From a virus, in IMG/VR virus record IMGVR_UViG_3300012924_000001, positions 14,335-78,334 of that record: a stretch of 64,000 nucleotides of DNA; one strand, 5' to 3'. The position numbers and the translations under genes are program-made. Every line of letters starts with the position of its first letter. Position 1 is the stretch's first letter. This document shows, in pieces, positions 2,455-64,000 of the stretch. Under the pieces are notes generated by a model. The model was given only the letters and a program-made list of their open reading frames with translations. It did not search any database and was not told the origin of the DNA.

Positions 2455-4818
2455 ATGATTGATAACAGGCTTATTGAGTTCCATAAAGGTACGAACAGGG
2501 ACAAGGAAGACCCCCGTTTTGGGATTAAGCTGGCCCAGGCGATCAGTTCTACAGTTGATAGGGGATATAACGGGTATTATACGCGCCGCAATGGTAAGAT
2601 CAAGATTAGCCGTGATATCGCAGCGGGGCATCAAAGCATGACCCAGTTTCTTGACTTAATGAACATCGATGGAAAAAAAGCCTTTGTTAACCTGGACCTT
2701 AGTCCTCCCTGTATAGCCCCCAAATTTATGGATATCATGACGCAGCGTTTTATGGAGCGCAGCGAAGAGGTCAAAGTATCTGCAATTGATCCGCTATCCA
2801 TGCGCAAACAGGCGCGTGAAAAAGAGGAAGCTGAATTCAGGATGGGGAACAAGGATCTAATTAATGCTATCCAGCAGGAAGCGGGTGTTCCTGTAGAAGA
2901 TCCTACCGCGTATACTCCAGAAGATAAGGACGACCTTGAATTTTACTTTGGATATGAATATCAGCTTCCAGAGGAAATAAAGTTTGAGAAGGCAGTGTCG
3001 TATGTTTTAATTGATAATGATTGGTTACCCGTTTGTAAACGTAAGATCATCGAAGATATGGAGGAAACTCCCTTCGCGGCCACACGTACCTATGTTGATG
3101 TTAATGGTAAAATAAAGATAAGAGTCTGTGAACCAGAAAATACTTTTTACTCTTGGAGTAAATTTAATGATCTCAGGGATATAGCATGGTGTGGAGAGTT
3201 GTATAAAATGAAGGTCACAGAATACCGTGCTAGATTTGCAGAGGACTATATAAGGAAATATGGACCTGAAGAAGCTGAGAAAAAATTGTTTGAAGATGTA
3301 ATGACAGCCGCGAGTCAGTTCCCTGACTATACCGCTCTTAGTTGGAACTATGATTGGTCCTTTTCTTATTACCGGCCTTATGATGATTGGGAAATTGAGG
3401 TAATGGATTTTGAGTTTAAGACCGTGGATAATGATATTTATACTACAAAAACTAATAAATACGGTAACCTTATTGCCGTTGATAAAAGGAATAAAATTCC
3501 ACAAAATTTAGGCGAAAGTAAAGAAATAGTCTCCAAGCAGGTATATAATGTATACAGGGGATATTATGTGCGCAAACTGGATAAACTTTTTTGCTGGGGG
3601 CTGGCCAAGAACATGATCCGTCCTCAGAGCAACCTGAGTGATGTCTATTTCTCCTACAGCTTCTATATGCCTAAAAACCGGAACATGGATAATGTCACGC
3701 TTCCGGAAAGAATGAAGTCCTCTATAAACCAAATGACGCTCTCCCACTTGAAGATTCAGCAGCTCATCGCCAAAATGCGTCCCGCTGGTATCCTGGTGGA
3801 TATAAATGGACTACAGGATATAGACCTTGGCTTAGGCCATACCGTAACTCCCCTGGAGATGCAGGCTGTTTATGATCAAACAGGTAATGTTTACTATAGA
3901 AGTATAAAAGAGGACGGAGAGACCCGTCAAATAGTCCCTATCCAGGAACTGCCGAATGCTGGCTCAGTTGCCCAAATCCAGAACTGTATTAATATATACA
4001 ACTTCTACCTGGAACGTTTGCGTCAAGACCTTGGCACTAACGAATATGTGGAGGGGCAGTCTGTCAATCCAAAGCTCGGACTTGGTGTAATGGAAAATCA
4101 AATGGCCTCTTCTAACCGGGCAACAGCATATATATATGAAGGTTATCTTTCTCTTATGCAGAACACCTGTAGAAAGGTGGCCATGTTGCTCTGGGACAAT
4201 GTTATGTTCGGCGGTAAGGAATACAGGCATTTTATCGGTGATGAAGAGCTAGAGGATAAATATTTTGATGTAAACATTGAAATGTTGCCTGATGAGATGG
4301 AACGTGCTAAGATCGATCAGAAGGTAGAAACGGCACTTTCTGCTGGGATCATTGAGTTCCAGGATGCCTTCAAGATCAATAACATCAAGAACGTTAAACT
4401 GAAGGAGCTTTATTTGTCTCGTGCTCAGAAGCGTAACCAGCAAATGAAGATTCAGGAGAATCAGGCCAACATCAAAGCGACCTCAGACGCTCAAATTGCT
4501 TCAGCCCAGGCAACTACCCAGGGTAAACAGCAGGAGCTTCAAACTGACTATAGGGGTAAGGCTGTTATTGCTCAGATGAATGCGGATGCTAGTTCAAAAT
4601 TGGAACTACAAAAGTTCGTTCAGCAGTTACAGTTAGTATCTTTTGAAACAGGGACGCCGATCCCTGCGGACATGCAAGCTATTGTTGATGGTTTCTATGA
4701 TTCAATGGCTGAACAGGAAACGCAGCAACAGGAAATGGCTGATTCTGTGATGGAAGCGGATGAACAGCAGCAGCAGCAGCAACAAATGCAACCAGGACAA
4801 GCACCACAAATGGCATAA
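2455..4818 (+). CDS. Portal protein
   Basis: 787 aa after terL; IAPKFMDI motif, helical Q-rich C-terminus typical of crAss/P22-like portals. Confidence 0.88.
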   Translation: MIDNRLIEFHKGTNRDKEDPRFGIKLAQAISSTVDRGYNGYYTRRNGKIKISRDIAAGHQSMTQFLDLMNIDGKKAFVNLDLSPPCIAPKFMDIMTQRFMERSEEVKVSAIDPLSMRKQAREKEEAEFRMGNKDLINAIQQEAGVPVEDPTAYTPEDKDDLEFYFGYEYQLPEEIKFEKAVSYVLIDNDWLPVCKRKIIEDMEETPFAATRTYVDVNGKIKIRVCEPENTFYSWSKFNDLRDIAWCGELYKMKVTEYRARFAEDYIRKYGPEEAEKKLFEDVMTAASQFPDYTALSWNYDWSFSYYRPYDDWEIEVMDFEFKTVDNDIYTTKTNKYGNLIAVDKRNKIPQNLGESKEIVSKQVYNVYRGYYVRKLDKLFCWGLAKNMIRPQSNLSDVYFSYSFYMPKNRNMDNVTLPERMKSSINQMTLSHLKIQQLIAKMRPAGILVDINGLQDIDLGLGHTVTPLEMQAVYDQTGNVYYRSIKEDGETRQIVPIQELPNAGSVAQIQNCINIYNFYLERLRQDLGTNEYVEGQSVNPKLGLGVMENQMASSNRATAYIYEGYLSLMQNTCRKVAMLLWDNVMFGGKEYRHFIGDEELEDKYFDVNIEMLPDEMERAKIDQKVETALSAGIIEFQDAFKINNIKNVKLKELYLSRAQKRNQQMKIQENQANIKATSDAQIASAQATTQGKQQELQTDYRGKAVIAQMNADASSKLELQKFVQQLQLVSFETGTPIPADMQAIVDGFYDSMAEQETQQQEMADSVMEADEQQQQQQQMQPGQAPQMA

Positions 4819-55705: not shown

Positions 55706-56278
55706 TCAATCTTTTGAATGTTGAATAAAAATTGGTTCTACGGGTATGCTGTGAATAGCGCCGGTAAAATGGCCCTTATCAAAAGCGCTTCCTAATGAGG
55801 TAAAAGTAACCTCATCTGTATTGCGCACTACCTTTTTTAGTGTCTCTGTATTGGGCTTATGTTCGCCAGCATAAATAGCGATAGATTGGTAGGGAAGTAT
55901 TTGCATCATATTCGCTATTCTTTTTCGTGGTAGTAGATATTTAATAAATAAGCAATTATCATACTGGGCATAGTTTCGTACATATACATTTACTAGAGTG
56001 CAAATAAAAGAGGTGCAATATCCCCATTCTCCCGACCTAACGATAGTTGCTTTCTTGTCAAGTAAAGAGTTTAACTTGTTAACTGTGTCCTGTAAGAAAT
56101 CCGGGATGGGATATACTGACCACGCTAAGCGGTCTACTTCCATATGCATATCGCGCTCAAATATACGTCCGCTTGCAAAGACTATATCATAAAGTTCTGA
56201 AAGCGCACCCCTATTGCGCAGGGGACCATGTTTGATAAATAATTCAATTGCTTTTTCTTTGATCTGTTCGTTTGTCAT
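55706..56278 (-). CDS. Hypothetical protein, small-gene array
   Basis: ATGA overlap at 56275-56278 supports this start. Confidence 0.6.
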   Translation of the reverse strand: MTNEQIKEKAIELFIKHGPLRNRGALSELYDIVFASGRIFERDMHMEVDRLAWSVYPIPDFLQDTVNKLNSLLDKKATIVRSGEWGYCTSFICTLVNVYVRNYAQYDNCLFIKYLLPRKRIANMMQILPYQSIAIYAGEHKPNTETLKKVVRNTDEVTFTSLGSAFDKGHFTGAIHSIPVEPIFIQHSKD

Positions 56279-56553
56279 AATGATGATTTTATCTTTTTTA
56301 AATGCTTCTTGCAAAACCATCCCGAAAAGACGCTGCATTGATAATATGTTGTTTTGTATCCTACAGCCTGTTTTTTACAGTGCCATGCGCTACAGACGGG
56401 TAGGTCAAAGCTAACGTCCTTTATGCGCTCTGTTTTCACTCCAAAGCTGTCTGTATAGAACGGTACTCGCTTTTCCTGCGCCTGTGAAAATAGGGGTAGC
56501 AGAATGAGAATTATTATATGCTTCATTTGGTACGATGTTTTATGTGTTTCCAT
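56275..56553 (-). CDS. Small protein with signal-peptide-like segment
   Basis: MKHIIILILLPLFSQA-Q; four Cys. Confidence 0.5.
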   Translation of the reverse strand: METHKTSYQMKHIIILILLPLFSQAQEKRVPFYTDSFGVKTERIKDVSFDLPVCSAWHCKKQAVGYKTTYYQCSVFSGWFCKKHLKKIKSSL

Positions 56554-56563
56554 ACAAGTATAT

Positions 56564-56821
56564 TTAAAGAGTGATTTTTATTTCTTTTATACCGAGCGCT
56601 TTTGCATAAGAAGCGAGAAACGCAATACCTCCGTTTTGTTTGGTTCGGTTCAATTCACTTTCAAAATGTGTAATATTAGTACGGTTACATCTTACTCTTT
56701 TCGCTAAATCTTCTATTGAGATGTTAAGGACATCTCTAAATAGTTTCATTTGCTGACCTGTATGTTTGTCCGCATTTATTGTAACTGATTTTAGTTTGAC
56801 GTCTTTTCGCTGTCTTTTCAT
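56564..56821 (-). CDS. XRE-family HTH protein
   Basis: ISIEDLAKRVRCNRTNITHFE...YAKALG. Confidence 0.75.
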   Translation of the reverse strand: MKRQRKDVKLKSVTINADKHTGQQMKLFRDVLNISIEDLAKRVRCNRTNITHFESELNRTKQNGGIAFLASYAKALGIKEIKITL

Positions 56822-56822
56822 T

Positions 56823-57209
56823 TTATTGTAATTCAGCTTTACTTAACTCTTCACAAAATTCCTTAAACTCTTCTGTGTAATTCCCCTCTTCGTCGAATAC
56901 TTCATAATCAATAGAGTCATACTCGCAAAAAAGAGGGTAATTTTCTTTTGAATTATATGTTGTTTTGAAAAACAATGGTGTCTCATTCAGGGTGAAAGTG
57001 ATATTCATAACAGTCAAATGACCATCACTTACAAGCCCAATTACAAATGGTTCTCCGTCATGCTCGAATTGCATGTCATTCAAACCAAAGCCCTCATGAA
57101 TAAGTATTGTTAACCTGCCAATACATTTTAATAGCTTTGATACGTTGTAGGCGTCACGCGGCAACACGTGAAAAAAGCCTGTATCTATTGTTTGCCCTGT
57201 GTGGTACAT
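56823..57209 (-). CDS. Hypothetical protein, small-gene array
   Basis: Co-oriented ORF. Confidence 0.6.
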   Translation of the reverse strand: MYHTGQTIDTGFFHVLPRDAYNVSKLLKCIGRLTILIHEGFGLNDMQFEHDGEPFVIGLVSDGHLTVMNITFTLNETPLFFKTTYNSKENYPLFCEYDSIDYEVFDEEGNYTEEFKEFCEELSKAELQ

Positions 57210-57228
57210 ATATTTTTTGTTTGAAGGA

Positions 57229-57504
57229 TTATAATTGTTTTATATCTATACTGCTGCCAAAACGATGTGGCTCCTCAAAACGAAGATGGATATTTATACG
57301 CATCAATATTTTTAGACTACCTAAACTCATTATTTCAATTTTCAGATCAAGAAGATATAATCTTAATGCCTCTTCTTTAATATGCCCCATTTCTGTATGA
57401 TAAGCGTCTTCCTTTTTTTCTTGGGCCTTTAAATAATGATTCTTTAGCTTTTTGATTTGGTTATTATATTGACGGGATGTTAATGTTTTTTGTGTGTTTT
57501 CCAT
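57229..57504 (-). CDS. Hypothetical protein, paralog of 53599..53862
   Basis: Shared motif. Confidence 0.65.
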   Translation of the reverse strand: MENTQKTLTSRQYNNQIKKLKNHYLKAQEKKEDAYHTEMGHIKEEALRLYLLDLKIEIMSLGSLKILMRINIHLRFEEPHRFGSSIDIKQL

Positions 57505-57515
57505 GCTTATATAAT

Positions 57516-57719
57516 TTAAGCGGTTACTTCAGACTTGTATAATTCGTATGCGGCTTTCCGTAAAGCTGTTGGGGTAAGGTAAAACTTGCCATTGCCATGC
57601 AGTTCATTACGGCCAAGATATTCCGCTACTTTATTTTGCACAGTAGTACGCGGTTCTTTTATCGGCTCTTTGAGTTTCTTACACGCGGTTTGGAATTGAT
57701 TCCATGTTAGTTTGTCCAT
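57516..57719 (-). CDS. Hypothetical protein, small-gene array
   Basis: Co-oriented ORF. Confidence 0.6.
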   Translation of the reverse strand: MDKLTWNQFQTACKKLKEPIKEPRTTVQNKVAEYLGRNELHGNGKFYLTPTALRKAAYELYKSEVTA

Positions 57720-57739
57720 ATGCTATAATTAAATGGTGA

Positions 57740-58156
57740 TTAATAGGTTTTGAATGCGCGTTTCAGCGTTCTTTTAGCGGAGGTATGGTATTCACTATCC
57801 GAGTTAAAATAGTCGTTAATATACTCCTTTAAATGGTCACACTCGGCACTATTGGACCATTCTATTTGCAAGGGAGTGTAGTTTTTAAAATAATCCTTAT
57901 CCGTATCACCTTCCTGAACGGCGAAGCGGCCTAACAGCCCTGCCATAGCTACTAGGCTGTCAATCCCATAAAGTATAGACGGTTTGAAATCTTTTCCACT
58001 AAATAACTCTTTACCGTTCCACCAAAAAGAGTAACGTACATTATCGCCCCCTGTATAAAATGTATAACAGGCAATTTTTAGCTTGCGCATTATCAGGGTA
58101 GATAACAGATTTTCATCTGCTAACAATTGTTCGTGTGTGGGCTGTTTTGTTTCCAT
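57740..58156 (-). CDS. Hypothetical protein, small-gene array
   Basis: Co-oriented ORF; GDTDKDYF..YTP.Q.EW motif. Confidence 0.6.
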   Translation of the reverse strand: METKQPTHEQLLADENLLSTLIMRKLKIACYTFYTGGDNVRYSFWWNGKELFSGKDFKPSILYGIDSLVAMAGLLGRFAVQEGDTDKDYFKNYTPLQIEWSNSAECDHLKEYINDYFNSDSEYHTSAKRTLKRAFKTY

Positions 58157-58164
58157 ATTAAAAG

Positions 58165-58440
58165 TTATTTAATACATGCGGTTATTGTTTGTCCTGTAGC
58201 GCTTACCTGGATGGGTTTACCAATGTTGGCAAGAATAGTCTCATATTCCTGGGTAGCTATTTTGATAGCTTCCGCGTACTTTTCGGAGTTATCAAACACT
58301 TTCAGCTCTAAGGGTCTGAAATAAACATGCGCTATCGTATGATAGTCCCCAGCCGTTTCTTTGCGCTTATCTGCGTATACATAAGCATTCGGATAAGTGC
58401 CAATGAATAGCCAATCAGGGATTACAATTTTTGTGTTCAT
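58165..58440 (-). CDS. Hypothetical protein, small-gene array
   Basis: Co-oriented ORF. Confidence 0.6.
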   Translation of the reverse strand: MNTKIVIPDWLFIGTYPNAYVYADKRKETAGDYHTIAHVYFRPLELKVFDNSEKYAEAIKIATQEYETILANIGKPIQVSATGQTITACIK

Positions 58441-58499
58441 AGTATACAGTTTTAAGTATTAATCAATAAACTCAATGACTTTATTCTTTGTTTGTATTA

Positions 58500-58880
58500 T
58501 CAAAAAATAATTTCACCGTAAAATACAGTCTGTAGTAAAACATCAGCGGTTACGGCATCGTCTATGTCATTTATAAAATCGCTTAAATAATCAAACGGCA
58601 TTTTTGAGACGCCTATATGTACGTCTGATAGTTTAATTTGTTTTATACCCTCACTTCCTTCCTTATCCTCAAACGATAGCGTTCCCCCATCCTTTAAAAT
58701 TTGCATCCAAACATCTTCAATGCAGGGGTTTGTTAGTGAGGCCTTGGCTGTCTTATACTCCTGTTCATCGTAGGTCAATTCAATTCCGTGAGCGGCCATA
58801 TACCCACTGCTAACAGCATTACAGAGGGCCAAATGAAAGTACTTTTCTGATTCCTCATGCGTTAATAATATCTGTGCCAT
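58500..58880 (-). CDS. Hypothetical protein (DAVTADVLLQ...GEII motif) directly downstream of hammerhead 1
   Basis: Recurrent phage motif. Confidence 0.65.
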   Translation of the reverse strand: MAQILLTHEESEKYFHLALCNAVSSGYMAAHGIELTYDEQEYKTAKASLTNPCIEDVWMQILKDGGTLSFEDKEGSEGIKQIKLSDVHIGVSKMPFDYLSDFINDIDDAVTADVLLQTVFYGEIIF

Positions 58881-58897
58881 ATTCTTTATTTTTATTT

Positions 58898-58950
58898 GGT
58901 TAAGACCCCGCTTGTCGGGGTTTCACAGAGTAACCGATCATCAGTTAACC
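58898..58950 (-). ncRNA. Type I hammerhead ribozyme (variant), HH1
   Basis: GGUUAA-CUGAUGA-UCGG UUACU CUGU-GAAA-CCCCG ACAAG CGGGG-UC^UUAACC. Confidence 0.85.
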
Positions 58951-58958
58951 TTTAGTCC

Positions 58959-59129
58959 TCATCCGGGGTATGTAATGGGAGTTGTCATCCATTCCGTATC
59001 TATTACTAGCACATTCGCTGTGCTGAATATCTCATACTCAGAATTTTGTTCTAGTTCCTCAATGGCATCCGCTACACTGAGAGCGGACTGTATCTTTATT
59101 TTGATGATAGCATAAATTGTTGTTTCCAT
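58959..59129 (-). CDS. Small acidic protein (56 aa, not in ORF track)
   Basis: METTIYAIIKIK...; preceded by TAACCTTTAAAC. Confidence 0.65.
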   Translation of the reverse strand: METTIYAIIKIKIQSALSVADAIEELEQNSEYEIFSTANVLVIDTEWMTTPITYPG

Positions 59130-59161
59130 AATAAATAAGTTTAAAGGTTATTAATACTATT

Positions 59162-59347
59162 CTATACCAAACTAAAATTACGCCACCATGAGCCAATAGT
59201 ATGCCGTTGTCCTAGATCATTGGTTACGGTTACTTCCATTAATGCAGCAACGCTTTCAATCGGGTTTTTAAGCTCATACGTGCGGCCTTTAGTAAAGCAT
59301 TTACCAAGGTTATACAGGTCTTTTTTCGCTTTTATTTTCGTGTACAT
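59162..59347 (-). CDS. Hypothetical protein, small-gene array
   Basis: Co-oriented ORF. Confidence 0.6.
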   Translation of the reverse strand: MYTKIKAKKDLYNLGKCFTKGRTYELKNPIESVAALMEVTVTNDLGQRHTIGSWWRNFSLV

Positions 59348-59348
59348 A

Positions 59349-59591
59349 TCAATGTAGTTTAGCGGTTAATTTTGTTTGAAAGCGGCCCCCAAAGGAAAAG
59401 TAGGTGTTACATGGTTCTATTTCCTTACGGTCAAAATGCATTTTTGCGTCATCTGGGGTTATCCAGCCGTTTGTAATGGCCTTGTTGATCTCTGTAGGAG
59501 TATACAGTTCATCCCTTACCAGAAAGGTATTGGAAAAGTGGACACTCAGAGGGACTTGATCTGAACTTTTTTTCACTTTGTAGTATAACAT
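59349..59591 (-). CDS. Hypothetical protein, small-gene array
   Basis: Co-oriented ORF; ELYTP...YFSFG.RF motif. Confidence 0.6.
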   Translation of the reverse strand: MLYYKVKKSSDQVPLSVHFSNTFLVRDELYTPTEINKAITNGWITPDDAKMHFDRKEIEPCNTYFSFGGRFQTKLTAKLH

Positions 59592-59612
59592 ATATAGTGG
59601 TTTTAGGATTAT

Positions 59613-59867
59613 TTAATCGGCCATTAGTGGCTGTTTGGCTATGTGTGTTACCAGCATTCGGACAGCGAGAACGTTTAATTGTTCTAGCGCGCTGATAGCC
59701 GATTCCGCTGTATAATATGCATGTGTGCGCATCTGTTTAAGTGACTTGTTTCTACATTTGCCATCTGAATAGTGGTAAGTACGTCCGGCGCTATCGACAA
59801 TATACCAGTAGGTAGTAGCACGACCAGCTAAGAAGTATCGATTGCTCTTTATAGTGTACAGGTACAT
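59613..59867 (-). CDS. Hypothetical protein, small-gene array
   Basis: Start at MYLYTIK after an A-rich leader. Confidence 0.55.
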   Translation of the reverse strand: MYLYTIKSNRYFLAGRATTYWYIVDSAGRTYHYSDGKCRNKSLKQMRTHAYYTAESAISALEQLNVLAVRMLVTHIAKQPLMAD

Positions 59868-59889
59868 AATAATGTAGTTTAAGGAGTAT

Positions 59890-60420
59890 CTAAAAATCAA
59901 AATCGATAACAACTGTAGTTCCTTTCTTCTTACCAAAGCCACCCCCTAACACGTCATTAAATGGCACATACCAGTATTTACGCGCCTGGTGGTTATATCC
60001 TTGCGCCACATATACCTGAGCGGATACACGGCCACCCTTAAACAGGAGCTTAAAGTAATCGCCCTTTTTAACCTTCTCAATTGTGGTTTGGCCTTGTATC
60101 TTATTGATAATTTCCGCATTCGCTTTGATTACCATATCCAGCCTATTACTTATGTCATTAAGAGCTATCGTATTACCTTCCCGTTGTAGCTTATCGGCAA
60201 GGGCACTTAACCCATCTACAGGCACGGTTTGAGCGTTATAAATCTCATTTACATAAGCGGCTTTAGTCCTTCCCATCGCTCCACACACAGTACAGCGTAC
60301 CTGAGAAGATTTAGTAGGTTTTATCTTACCAGTGCGATAACTCCAATAGTGCCTGTATTGCGTAATTACATATTTGCTTCTATCGCGTGGCCTGCATTGG
60401 CAGGAAAATCGTATTGACAT
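59890..60420 (-). CDS. Hypothetical protein with N-terminal Zn-ribbon
   Basis: CQC...CTVC. Confidence 0.6.
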   Translation of the reverse strand: MSIRFSCQCRPRDRSKYVITQYRHYWSYRTGKIKPTKSSQVRCTVCGAMGRTKAAYVNEIYNAQTVPVDGLSALADKLQREGNTIALNDISNRLDMVIKANAEIINKIQGQTTIEKVKKGDYFKLLFKGGRVSAQVYVAQGYNHQARKYWYVPFNDVLGGGFGKKKGTTVVIDFDF

Positions 60421-60430
60421 AATAACAGGT

Positions 60431-60676
60431 TTACAGGTTATTGAAAGAGGGCTGATAACCGATCATACCCTTGTGTAACATACCAACTATAGTAAACTCT
60501 GATTCGCTGCCGTTTAGCGTTATTCCGTCCATATGTGTTAATCCTATGCAATAATCATTCAGCAGGCATATAATAAGATACTGCCCTATGCGGTCTTTAA
60601 TAACACGATAAGCAGTAGATGCCCACTGTACATTGTGACCTGAATCAACAGCTTGTTTAATTTCTGTAACTGTCAT
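60431..60676 (-). CDS. Hypothetical protein, small-gene array
   Basis: Co-oriented ORF. Confidence 0.6.
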   Translation of the reverse strand: MTVTEIKQAVDSGHNVQWASTAYRVIKDRIGQYLIICLLNDYCIGLTHMDGITLNGSESEFTIVGMLHKGMIGYQPSFNNL

Positions 60677-60696
60677 AATAGAGTTCGGTTTAAAGG

Positions 60697-60966
60697 TTAA
60701 TACATTTTATCTATGGGCAGATGTTCGCCCCCGTCTGCATCCCTACAGATTGCGCGGTAGCCAGCACAATCAATGGCCGGTCTATTTTCATGTGCGAGGC
60801 GCTTTACTTGCGTTTCAAGTGCCAATAATTCGTCATTATCCCCCTCATCTTCTTGTGGGGAATAATCAGCTACAAAGGGCATTGTGAAATAAGGCCAATC
60901 CTGCGTCAATTGTCCGTTGTGGTCTAATTTCCATATTTCTAGTGTCCAATTATTATTTGTTTCCAT
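60697..60966 (-). CDS. Acidic hypothetical protein directly downstream of hammerhead 2
   Basis: Co-oriented ORF. Confidence 0.6.
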   Translation of the reverse strand: METNNNWTLEIWKLDHNGQLTQDWPYFTMPFVADYSPQEDEGDNDELLALETQVKRLAHENRPAIDCAGYRAICRDADGGEHLPIDKMY

Positions 60967-60988
60967 CTGAAAAGATTTAAAGGTTATT

Positions 60989-61041
60989 GACTAATAGGGG
61001 CCTTTTACCCCTTTCACGTAATAAACGATCATCGGTTAGCC
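60989..61041 (-). ncRNA. Type I hammerhead ribozyme (variant core CCGAUGA), HH2
   Basis: GGCUAA-CCGAUGA-UCGU UUAUU ACGU-GAAA-GGGGU AAAAG GCCCC-UA^UUAGUC. Confidence 0.75.
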
Positions 61042-61052
61042 TTGTAATAGGT

Positions 61053-61358
61053 TTAAAGGAATTTATAAATAAGCCTGATACTCACTATATCCCCTTCTTT
61101 GCTATCTATCTGTACCGTGTTTATGTCTATGACTGAAAATTCATCTTTTTTAGGCCAATCAACCCAGCTGTCTTTAAAAGCCTGATCTTTTTCTCGCCAT
61201 GTTTTTAGGGCAAAAGAATTGCTTTGTACGATAGATACTTCCCTTTCATCATGTAGCTGTATGAGCTTTAGATTCCCCTGTTTGTCTGCCCAATGTAATT
61301 CAGAATATATTTTTGTACCAGGGGTAACACGTTTTTTGAAGTCTGAAATAGTCTGCAT
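61053..61358 (-). CDS. Hypothetical protein, small-gene array
   Basis: Start at MQTISDF after the TAACCTTTAAAC motif. Confidence 0.6.
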   Translation of the reverse strand: MQTISDFKKRVTPGTKIYSELHWADKQGNLKLIQLHDEREVSIVQSNSFALKTWREKDQAFKDSWVDWPKKDEFSVIDINTVQIDSKEGDIVSIRLIYKFL

Positions 61359-61368
61359 AGTAATAGGT

Positions 61369-61560
61369 TTAAAGGTTAAGGTTTTTAATATAGTTTTTTG
61401 CAACTGTCCATGCCTTACTGCGCGTGGGTTGGGCAGCGTTTAAATAAAAACTATCCGATATAGTTTTACTATAAAACATTATAACAGGATAGTATTGTAC
61501 ATGCCCTTTGTGATTTGATTTGGACGTGGAGGGCTTGTAAGTTACGTTTTGCTGTGCCAT
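61369..61560 (-). CDS. Hypothetical protein, small-gene array
   Basis: Preceded by the motif. Confidence 0.6.
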   Translation of the reverse strand: MAQQNVTYKPSTSKSNHKGHVQYYPVIMFYSKTISDSFYLNAAQPTRSKAWTVAKNYIKNLNL

Positions 61561-61571
61561 AATCTAATGGT

Positions 61572-61835
61572 TTACAGGTTATCATTGATGTGTTGAACGA
61601 TGGCTGTATAAGTGGAGTCCGGCACTGGCTCCCGCTGTATTTTGGGCAGGAAGGGGGAGATAGGGTACAACTGCACACGATATACAGGCAGTTCATTTGA
61701 CTTGTCCTGTGTGATAAAGATATGCAGGCCGTCCGGCGCATTGTCTGCTATCCAGTCCATGAGTAATTCAAGGGCCGGGCCTTCCTTTGATATAAGGAGG
61801 GCGTTTTTATTGATAAGATAATATGCTTTGTTCAT
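61572..61835 (-). CDS. Hypothetical protein, small-gene array
   Basis: Preceded by a motif variant. Confidence 0.6.
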   Translation of the reverse strand: MNKAYYLINKNALLISKEGPALELLMDWIADNAPDGLHIFITQDKSNELPVYRVQLYPISPFLPKIQREPVPDSTYTAIVQHINDNL

Positions 61836-61846
61836 GATACGATAGT

Positions 61847-62038
61847 TTAAAGAGTTTGTAGTTTTAAAAGTATATCGGTCCAGTATGCAACAATGGTTAT
61901 ATCATCGGTATAGTATATGACATTGGGGTCATTCCACATTGTACGCTCCTGTGCCTGCTCTATTGCTTTATTTAGATCGGTAACCTCAATAGACTTGCCT
62001 AATAGATCAGTTATGTAAATTTTGTTTGTAGTGTCCAT
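61847..62038 (-). CDS. Hypothetical protein, small-gene array
   Basis: IEVTDLNKAIEQA...YWTD motif. Confidence 0.6.
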   Translation of the reverse strand: MDTTNKIYITDLLGKSIEVTDLNKAIEQAQERTMWNDPNVIYYTDDITIVAYWTDILLKLQTL

Positions 62039-62055
62039 AGTATGTTAGTTAAGAG

Positions 62056-62379
62056 TTATTGATTAATATACAGTGTAGCATACTGATACCCCCAAAAATT
62101 AGACTGTATGAGCAGCATGTTTTTGCTGTTCCTTATAGCTATTTTCATACAGTCATTAACAAATTGCTGAGTGTCCTTAATTAATCTTGGACCAACAATA
62201 CTAAAATCAAAACTATAGAAGCTATGTTTTGTATCAACGGTTGTTCTACAGGTATCAATCTCGCAAACAATAGCCTTGTTTTGCTTGGCATAGTCATATA
62301 CTATAGTAACCTGCTCAGCGGGTGATAATTCATTAATGTTTGCCGGTAAGCCTATTATATTGGGAATGGTGATTGCCAT
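62056..62379 (-). CDS. Hypothetical protein, small-gene array
   Basis: Preceded by a motif variant. Confidence 0.6.
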   Translation of the reverse strand: MAITIPNIIGLPANINELSPAEQVTIVYDYAKQNKAIVCEIDTCRTTVDTKHSFYSFDFSIVGPRLIKDTQQFVNDCMKIAIRNSKNMLLIQSNFWGYQYATLYINQ

Positions 62380-62389
62380 AAGAACAGGT

Positions 62390-62629
62390 TTAAAGATTAT
62401 AGTTAGGATGTGCGGTCATCTTTAGCAAGGGACTAACGCACACGTGTTGAAATGTGATAGGGTCTGTAACTGCCCATAAGAGCCTGTGGCGGTCCGCTGG
62501 CTTGTAAGACTTGTAGTTGATACGCTGATCTATTGTAAGCTCAAAATACGGGCTGTAATAGCCGTGGAAATGATTTTGAAAGATGATACTACGGAAGGTA
62601 AGTTGCTGGGAAGTGTTGTTTGTGGTCAT
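62390..62629 (-). CDS. Hypothetical protein, small-gene array
   Basis: Preceded by the motif. Confidence 0.55.
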   Translation of the reverse strand: MTTNNTSQQLTFRSIIFQNHFHGYYSPYFELTIDQRINYKSYKPADRHRLLWAVTDPITFQHVCVSPLLKMTAHPNYNL

Positions 62630-62662
62630 AGTATGTTAGTTTAAAGGTTAAGAGTGATCCAC

Positions 62663-62959
62663 TCAAATGTTATACGGTAACTGGTACAATTCTGTACTGT
62701 TAAGGGTATAAAAATGCACGGGTTCAGCTTGCCGCTGTTCAATAAATGTCACATACTCATCAAAGGACACTTCTTTGGGGTCACGCCCATTTAAGTACAT
62801 ATTGAGTGAAGCGTCCTTTGTGTCGTTGCGCATAGCGAAGGTGTTAAAGGCTGTATCAGGCTGTTGGTCATTGGCAACTATGTATATTACTATACCTTGT
62901 TCAAAGAGCAGCCGCGCCTGTCTGTGTGTGATTTCTAACAATGTTAGGGTGTGGTTCAT
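62663..62959 (-). CDS. Hypothetical protein, small-gene array
   Basis: Preceded by a motif variant. Confidence 0.6.
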   Translation of the reverse strand: MNHTLTLLEITHRQARLLFEQGIVIYIVANDQQPDTAFNTFAMRNDTKDASLNMYLNGRDPKEVSFDEYVTFIEQRQAEPVHFYTLNSTELYQLPYNI

Positions 62960-62969
62960 AGTAAACAGG

Positions 62970-63341
62970 TTAAAGGTTATTAGATTCCATTTTAACAGGC
63001 GCTAAATACTCCCGCGTGCCGATATGCTTAAAGAGTAGTGCAGCGCTGCCTGTATCCGCGTCTTTCATCCCCATGTACATATAATGACCCGCAAAGTTAG
63101 GGGACGCGGGATCAGCAGATAATATACCGGCGTTGATAGCATGAGCAAAGCAGTCTTTTGCGCTTGGACCGTTTATAGGGAAGCTCTTTTTAAGGTCCTC
63201 AATCTGCTGCTTAATTGTTAAGCGAGTAGCGGGATCAATAGTACGAACCATACGCGCAGTGAGCAGCTCAATGAGCTTATGGGGATCGGTAGTGTTAGCG
63301 ATCATGCGATCTATGATAATAGTCATGTTCATTCCGTTCAT
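62970..63341 (-). CDS. Hypothetical protein (YMYMG...FKHI.TREYL motif)
   Basis: Preceded by the motif. Confidence 0.6.
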   Translation of the reverse strand: MNGMNMTIIIDRMIANTTDPHKLIELLTARMVRTIDPATRLTIKQQIEDLKKSFPINGPSAKDCFAHAINAGILSADPASPNFAGHYMYMGMKDADTGSAALLFKHIGTREYLAPVKMESNNL

Positions 63342-63359
63342 GATATATAAGTTTAAAGG

Positions 63360-63563
63360 TTAAAGTGAATTGATTTCATTATCTAAAAGGTGGTGCCCCG
63401 CTTCCACGTACTTTGTGGCATATACTTCAAAGCCGTCTCCTTCAGGGAAGCGCGTTTTGAAGTCGTTATAGATGGCTTTAAGCGCTTTACCGCTTGTAAT
63501 ACTGCGCTTATGAGTGGCAAAATAATGTACGCCTTTAAGTGACACGATAATTTCGTAGTACAT
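63360..63563 (-). CDS. Hypothetical protein (YEIIVSL.G.HYFAT..RSI motif)
   Basis: Recurrent phage early-gene family. Confidence 0.65.
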   Translation of the reverse strand: MYYEIIVSLKGVHYFATHKRSITSGKALKAIYNDFKTRFPEGDGFEVYATKYVEAGHHLLDNEINSL

Positions 63564-63573
63564 ACAATGTAGT

Positions 63574-63801
63574 TTAAAGGGTTGATGAATGTGTAATGTC
63601 TACCATATCCCCGGCCTTTACTACTTTCTTACGTAAGCGGGCGTGATATTTAGCTTCCTGTAAGGCGACGGCGTCCTGTCCTATACGAGTCCAGTTTGCG
63701 AAATCTTTATCAGTCTCATAGATAACAATATATGTTGCTGTTATATACGGTTGTGTCGCAAAGATAAAATTACCTTCTTTGGTGGTTATTGCGGTATGCA
63801 T
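63574..63801 (-). CDS. Hypothetical protein, small-gene array
   Basis: Preceded by the motif. Confidence 0.6.
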   Translation of the reverse strand: MHTAITTKEGNFIFATQPYITATYIVIYETDKDFANWTRIGQDAVALQEAKYHARLRKKVVKAGDMVDITHSSTL

Positions 63802-63819
63802 AGTTATGTAGTTTAAAGG

Positions 63820-64000
63820 TTATTCAGCAATAGTAACTTTATAATACCCTTTGGGATCAATCCAGTACTTAAACCCCCCATTGTCACACGTATTGGTTTG
63901 TTCTATCAATTCATATGCACAATCAGCTAGTGTCTCCTGCGCTAATGTATAGAAAAGTCCCTGTAAGGTTGGTTCGTTACGTTGTTCTTTTGCTTCATTG
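63820..64000 (-). CDS. 3' part of a gene truncated by the window end
   Basis: Open frame ...GFKYWIDPKGYYKVTIAE* whose TAA begins the motif. Confidence 0.55.
   Translation of the reverse strand, partial: NEAKEQRNEPTLQGLFYTLAQETLADCAYELIEQTNTCDNGGFKYWIDPKGYYKVTIAE

Follow-up and report, generated by a model that had tools for sequence, protein, structure and literature searches.

Results and discussion

A hammerhead between small phage genes

The intergenic element HH2, on the minus strand of an uncultivated soil phage, is best explained as a phage type I hammerhead ribozyme that would cleave the polycistronic transcript of small genes in which it is embedded. Judging from its sequence and those of its relatives, we give this reading a probability of roughly 0.6. 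HH2 has homologues in other phages, its fold is conserved among them, its layout at a gene junction is shared with them and each of its variant features is found again in nature. A sister copy, HH1, is carried on the same strand (Table 1).

The source is a 78,334 bp IMG/VR virus record with direct terminal repeats, originating from soil metagenomes and coding for a large terminase, a portal protein and virion proteins. The window, by which we mean the whole 64-kb stretch of DNA analysed, comprises bases 14335-78334 of this record. Small ORFs are packed tightly on its minus strand, from about 64000 down to about 55000. No Shine-Dalgarno sequence was found upstream of any of the 35 start codons checked in the record (0/35), an absence that would suit, for example, a Bacteroidota host. 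Neither of the ORFs flanking HH2 (60697-60966 and 61053-61358) has a Pfam or PHROGs match, a protein scan of viral contigs found no relative of the 89-aa downstream ORF, and a blastn search of INPHARED phages with 7 kb of the window returned no match. Promoter and terminator scans of positions 56000-64000 gave no more than chance, with nothing at HH1 or HH2. The whole 78-kb genome contains two hammerhead copies only, HH1 and HH2, which add a well-supported hammerhead pair for an uncultivated soil phage lacking Shine-Dalgarno sequences.

Table 1. Features of the HH2 junction and associated elements (window coordinates)
Feature	Position	Strand	Basis or remark
HH2, complete 53-nt type I hammerhead, stem I open	60989..61041	(-)	sequence read and covariance-model hits (R1, R2, R3)
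Stem I 5' strand, GGCUAA	61036..61041	(-)	pairs with 60989-60994, one G.U pair
Core C3-A9, CCGAUGA	61029..61035	(-)	C4 at 61034 in place of consensus U4
Stem II hairpin: U10.1, CGU, loop UUAUU, ACG, U11.1	61016..61028	(-)	3 bp closed by a U.U mismatch
U10.1; U11.1; loop II UUAUU	61028; 61016; 61024-61020	(-)	direct reading
Core G12 A13 A14 (GAA)	61013..61015	(-)	invariant or nearly so across the family
Stem III hairpin: A15.1-GGGGU, loop AAAAG, GCCCC-U16.1	60996..61012	(-)	present in every predicted fold
Predicted cleavage site, after A17 (60995) and before U1.1 (60994)	60994..60995	(-)	hammerhead consensus position
Stem I 3' strand, UUAGUC	60989..60994	(-)	would be the first six nt of the 5'-OH product
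Leader remainder: tail AAUAA, motif TAACCTTTAAA, 9-nt spacer, then ATG	60967..60988	(-)	part of the 28-nt post-cut leader
Downstream ORF, 89 aa	60697..60966	(-)	start codon 60966-60964
Upstream ORF, 101 aa	61053..61358	(-)	stop codon 11 nt ahead of HH2
Motif TAACCTTTAAA, examples	60976-60986, 61368-61378, 62640-62650, 63352-63362, 63812-63822	(-)	
16-nt exact repeat CCTTTAAACCTATTAC	61044-61059 and 61360-61375	(-)	sole two copies in the window
HH1, sister type I hammerhead, canonical CUGAUGA core, U.U mismatch	58898..58950	(-)	R3 59.2 bits

Architecture and homology

A preliminary description of this DNA, made from the sequence alone, had set out the stems, core, cleavage triplet, loop and tail of HH2, and direct reading of the minus strand finds all of these statements correct. 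Three helices surround the core in type I order. The cleavage triplet is CUA, with an A at 61012 facing a U at 60996 as the A15.1-U16.1 pair and an A rather than a G at position 17 (60995). The core residues C3, G5, A6, G8, A9, G12, A13 and A14 are all in place and match those that are invariant in the family described below. Two consensus features are missing: the U at position 4, where the change to C noted in the preliminary description is indeed seen at 61034, and the Watson-Crick 10.1-11.1 pair (usually G-C), which is replaced by a U10.1.U11.1 mismatch that is common to HH1 and HH2 and had gone unmentioned. The core positions other than C4 and the U.U mismatch are unaltered, and all 15 base pairs are intact. 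Folded as a single sequence in its 89-nt context, HH2 adopts a minimum-free-energy structure that differs from the hammerhead fold.

HH1 and HH2 had been said to share a 53-nt layout while their stems differ in sequence and still pair, and this covariation had been taken as a sign of a real structure. Reading both copies bears out the comparison, and the covariation is far stronger across the relatives retrieved by a covariance-model search such as had been proposed. A model of the two sequences (R1) drew relatives from pattern scans of viral contigs, and a further model (R3) was then made from the alignment of 137 hits (125 distinct), all from other phage contigs and with the window excluded. 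Both the core and the pairing are conserved in the 125 distinct relatives: stems I, II and III are paired in 100, 99.7 and 99.5% of cases respectively, with compensatory changes at 6/6, 3/3 and 5/6 of their pairs. Pairing falls to 26-43% when the partner columns are slid, shuffle controls are likewise far lower, and alignment A3 behaves similarly. C3, G5, A6, G8, A9, G12, A13, A14, A15.1 and U16.1 vary little or not at all across these relatives, and position 17 is C in 100 of them, A in 24, U in one and G in none. Applied to the 64-kb window with filters off, R3 recovers HH1 at 59.2 bits (E 3e-13) and HH2 at 53.5 bits (E 1e-11), the third-best match reaching 10.9 bits. HH2 is thereby confirmed as a genuine hammerhead-family element, homologous to phage type I hammerheads.

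A chance likeness to a hammerhead, in for instance an ordinary intergenic hairpin or terminator, is scarcely credible in the face of these results. It could draw on the silence of the Rfam hammerhead models, which report nothing in the whole window (at gathering scores), in a 6-kb stretch including HH2 (E<=10) or in the 101 nt around HH1 (E<=10), and on fold z-scores, which are unremarkable (only -1.26 for HH2). However, it is effectively refuted by the pairing across the family and by the R3 match at E 1e-11 in a window where only HH1 and HH2 score above 11 bits, and Rfam misses canonical relatives as well: when four relative loci were compared with its models, a canonical relative scored just 23.5 bits against HH9, for which the gathering score is 52. 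The blank obtained for HH1 and HH2 therefore reflects model coverage, and it is for this reason that we built models of our own. The terminator candidate was also rejected on its own terms, as stem III is followed by no T-run and the terminator scan came up empty at this place.

The relatives, of which viral contigs contain at least 125 distinct copies, make up an abundant sub-family of phage type I hammerheads, situated between co-oriented genes of tailed phages, that is invisible to current routine Rfam annotation. One member, at 3446-3502 of viral contig L330, has U3 and A8 replacing C3 and G8 (GGCUAAU-UGAUAA), a natural case of the known C3-G8 to U3-A8 core covariation.

Gene junctions, leader motif and recombination

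The layout of the family is constant, consisting of an upstream stop codon, the ribozyme, a leader of about 27 nt and a start codon. In 95/102 members the upstream stop either shares bases with the 5' strand of stem I or borders directly on it, and the downstream start lies 25-34 nt past the predicted cut in 85/104. HH2 fits this layout, with a stop 11 nt upstream and a start 28 nt past the predicted cut. For HH1, whose cut is predicted between 58904 and 58903, the stop codon is 8 nt upstream and the ATG at 58880 follows 23 nt past the cut. Many contigs carry three to six hammerhead copies spaced by a few hundred bases. Three viral contigs (L006, L331 and L335) have five to six type I copies within a few kb, one ahead of each small gene, none of which is reported by the Rfam hammerhead models at gathering scores.

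The leader downstream of HH2 carries the motif TAACCTTTAAA, which occurs 17 times with at most one mismatch, as against 3.4 occurrences expected; 11 of the copies, all between 59140 and 63822, precede the ATG of a small minus-strand ORF by 9-12 nt. The motif genuinely belongs to the initiation regions of the small-gene array, and looks like a phage-specific initiation-region or gene-junction signal. HH2 ends two bases upstream of one copy (60986-60976), and the tail AAUAA (60988-60984) that follows stem I has its final three letters within it. In three viral contigs (L249, L250 and L256), hammerheads with the U.U mismatch are followed by Shine-Dalgarno-less leaders containing TTTTAAAC, which is reminiscent of TAACCTTTAAA; these contigs may come from phages with similar hosts.

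The 16-nt exact repeat CCTTTAAACCTATTAC bears on how HH2 came to lie where it does. One of its copies is the leader of ORF 61053-61358; the other is found directly 5' of HH2, with no start codon following it. From this stray copy it would seem that recombination brought HH2, along with a copy of the motif, into what had been an ordinary gene junction. Such an entry agrees with two independent soil runs (X4/X5). They contain a 13.6-kb contig that matches only 60976-61043 (the motif and HH2), with 3 differences and with both flanks unlike, so that a 68-nt HH2-like island has been kept in a relative phage while its flanks were replaced. A second contig from the soil runs has an orthologue of ORF 60697-60966 and the motif, its match ending at 60988 and giving way to 17 unlike letters up to the contig end.

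The same runs also show a related soil phage (matching 58797-60988) in which the orthologues of ORFs 60431-60966 are joined to the region of ORF 58500-58880 with 56 letters between them, HH1 and five or so intervening ORFs being missing. The small-gene array is strongly mosaic. A metagenome scan for the 3' strand of stem I followed by the motif yielded 66 stretches, all of them chance matches without a hammerhead. Hammerheads were likewise absent from six related loci and five whole related records found through the 61-aa protein encoded at 59162-59347, which indicates that the element is dispensable in relatives and that the ribozymes are sporadic in this phage group.

Variation in the catalytic core

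Position 4 is U in 118 of the 125 distinct relatives and C in the other 7. Two scans enlarge on this minority. The first combined the family stem I with any letter other than U at position 4 and recovered five true C4 hammerheads amid chance matches to coding sequence. The second, an unbiased one, was keyed on stem II with a UAGAUAU loop. In the sub-lineage that it defines, 7 of 12 readable copies have C4 and 5 have U4, a count that includes L235, a C4 relative from the position-4 scan whose stem II and loop differ. Compensated differences separate the C4 copies in stem I (GGCUAA/UUAGUC versus GGCAAA/UUUGUC), in stem II and in stem III, where four helices are represented. The retention of compensatory changes in the stems of C4 copies argues that U4C is tolerated in vivo, and as far as the sequences can tell C4 is a tolerated, recurrent natural variant. 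Among natural phage hammerheads, in other words, a stable minority has C in place of U4, a residue supposed to be essential.

The second departure of HH2 from the consensus is also shared. The U.U class consists of 16 distinct relatives, all with U4 and with covarying stems. A scan of genome contigs for this class gave 60 stretches, none matching R3, and a scan of viral sequences for the interior of HH2 gave no match. The U10.1-U11.1 mismatch is a natural one and the best tolerated of the mispairs at this place (Perreault et al. 2011, PMC3088659). What sets HH2 apart is the combination: C4 and U.U occur together in none of the 125 relatives (0/125), and a metagenome scan for the two together returned no match.

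Because it combines C4 with U.U, HH2 is probably a slower cutter than HH1, and the fact that no relative or metagenome match has both raises the possibility that the double variant falls below a useful rate. It is nevertheless reasonably likely, to judge from the sequence, that HH2 does cut at a useful rate. The opposite view holds that HH2 is a recently disabled copy, in which C4 on top of U.U abolished useful catalysis and which persists either as a hairpin-rich spacer or as a remnant that has yet to decay. The uniqueness of the combination speaks for this, as does the published record of the C4 change: U4C considerably lowers activity in vitro, although the viroid variant that has it is infectious (as cited by Perreault et al. 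2011, PMC3088659, their reference 30), and a C4 candidate from Aedes is listed in the literature among inactive examples that are multiply deviant. Related phages, moreover, manage without hammerheads. On the other hand, the rest of the core and every stem pair of HH2 are intact, C4 alone has persisted in a whole sub-lineage whose stems have undergone compensated changes, and the 68-nt island has been conserved in a diverged relative despite the replacement of its flanks. We consider a disabled HH2 unlikely on balance, if a serious competitor to an active ribozyme.

The preliminary description had suggested that the variant core might tune the cleavage rate, which is plausible. A stronger version of the same idea, that C4 hammerheads, and notably HH2 with its U.U mismatch, have been selected as slow or condition-dependent cutters (through metal-ion preference or co-transcriptional folding, for example), seems to us quite unlikely. 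Should it be true, such ribozymes would set the ratio of read-through to processed mRNA in a small-gene operon, and U4C would be a rate-tuning switch rather than damage. HH2, with both C4 and U.U, is a handy natural test case for the amount of core damage that peripheral structure is able to offset.

Loop II and the leader tail

The preliminary description had further proposed a pseudoknot that joins loop II (UUAUU) to the AAUAA tail and reaches into the initiation motif. Extended to function, this would mean that folding or cleavage of the ribozyme and translation of ORF 60697-60966 control each other, which we regard as highly improbable. The exact 5-nt complementarity is there, but it is no more than expected by chance: five contiguous loop/tail pairs are reached by 18% of the permuted pairings in the family. 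A relative in viral contig L248 does have a loop identical to that of HH2 and an identical start of the tail, the first A of the tail and the last U of the loop are conserved in the family, and pseudoknots joining stems I and II are common in hammerheads (Perreault et al. 2011). Against this, the five pairs form in 47.3% of family cells, as compared with 99.5-100% for the true stems, and the central pair forms in about 21/120 family sequences; the outer U-A pair is frequent because both of its letters are conserved. On average the longest helix between loop and tail has 3.23 pairs per member, versus 3.33 when tails are permuted among members, and five or more pairs are found in 17 of 106 members, versus 18.9 expected from permutation. 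HH1, for which a similar option had been claimed, offers only 3 contiguous pairs. The isolated UUAUU/AAUAA duplex is predicted at +0.8 kcal/mol, and in the 89-nt fold the complementarity feeds a rival hairpin that is not part of the hammerhead.

We therefore reject the loop II/tail pseudoknot as a family feature and put the complementarity down to the A/U-rich sequence. With the pseudoknot unsupported, the proposed coupling of HH2 to translation of the downstream gene becomes speculation. Conservation in this region does have a pattern of its own, the first U of loop II being invariant and the last nearly so among the 125 relatives, in which the sequence of stem I and the first A of the tail are also strongly conserved. 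There may still be a smaller, non-helical contact of a non-Watson-Crick kind between loop II (its first U), stem I and the tail (its first A).

Transcript processing and known hammerheads

Under the preferred reading, that of an active intergenic hammerhead, HH2 would lie within a long transcript of small genes on the minus strand, would fold into a three-stem junction and would most likely cut between 60995 and 60994, on the 3' side of A17. This would free the message of ORF 61053-61358, ending in a 2',3'-cyclic phosphate, and leave the downstream message with a 5'-OH end and a 28-nt leader that carries the initiation-region motif. Cuts at HH1 and HH2 together would release a segment of about 2.1 kb with seven ORFs. 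Cleavage by HH2, its rate and its effect on the fate of the mRNA are inferred.

Such a role is in line with previous work. Clustered hammerheads of types I, II and III located between genes of phages and prophages have been proposed to cut long transcripts down to mRNAs of gene length (Perreault et al. 2011, PLoS Comput Biol, PMC3088659), and this established view of phage hammerheads as transcript-processing elements is left unchanged by our results. Like those hammerheads, HH1 and HH2 are intergenic, lie among co-oriented genes and occur in several copies per genome, which flank either single genes or short blocks of them; the core, the three-stem junction and the U10.1-U11.1 variant are also the same. 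Unlike them, HH2 combines U.U with C4, has a 6-bp stem I with the family-conserved GGCUAA/UUAGUC and has no evident loop-loop pseudoknot, and its genome lacks Shine-Dalgarno sequences and uses a leader motif of its own. The string formed by stem I and the core of the HH2 sub-family had no text match in the supplements searched. The Rfam families RF00163 (Hammerhead_1), RF00008, RF02275 (HH9), RF02276 and RF02277, all of clan CL00010, represent the same ribozyme class and core as HH1 and HH2, yet report neither.

Each unusual feature of HH2 (its intergenic phage setting, the U.U mismatch and U4C) has a published precedent (Perreault et al. 2011, PMC3088659). The viroid U4C hammerhead, as it is presented in that paper through its reference 30, has the same core change as HH2, with reduced cleavage in vitro and infectivity kept. 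It is a type III ribozyme of rolling-circle replication without the U.U mismatch, whereas HH2 is an mRNA element of a DNA phage. A further parallel is the A6C variant, first seen in an intergenic phage hammerhead (Perreault et al. 2011, PMC3088659), which favours Mn2+ (Naghdi et al. 2020, PMC7151607). As is the case for C4, this is a natural core change, at position 6 rather than 4, and it alters the reaction conditions instead of simply killing the ribozyme.

A marker gene for the phage group

The 61-aa protein encoded at 59162-59347 of the window, on the minus strand, has no Pfam domain and has 56 homologues at 50-71% identity, some of them on phage-sized contigs of 60-95 kb. Its invariant positions are K, A, N, G, K, C, F, Y, I and G, and a SWW-R-F stretch is nearly invariant. 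Its gene can be used as a marker of this phage group.
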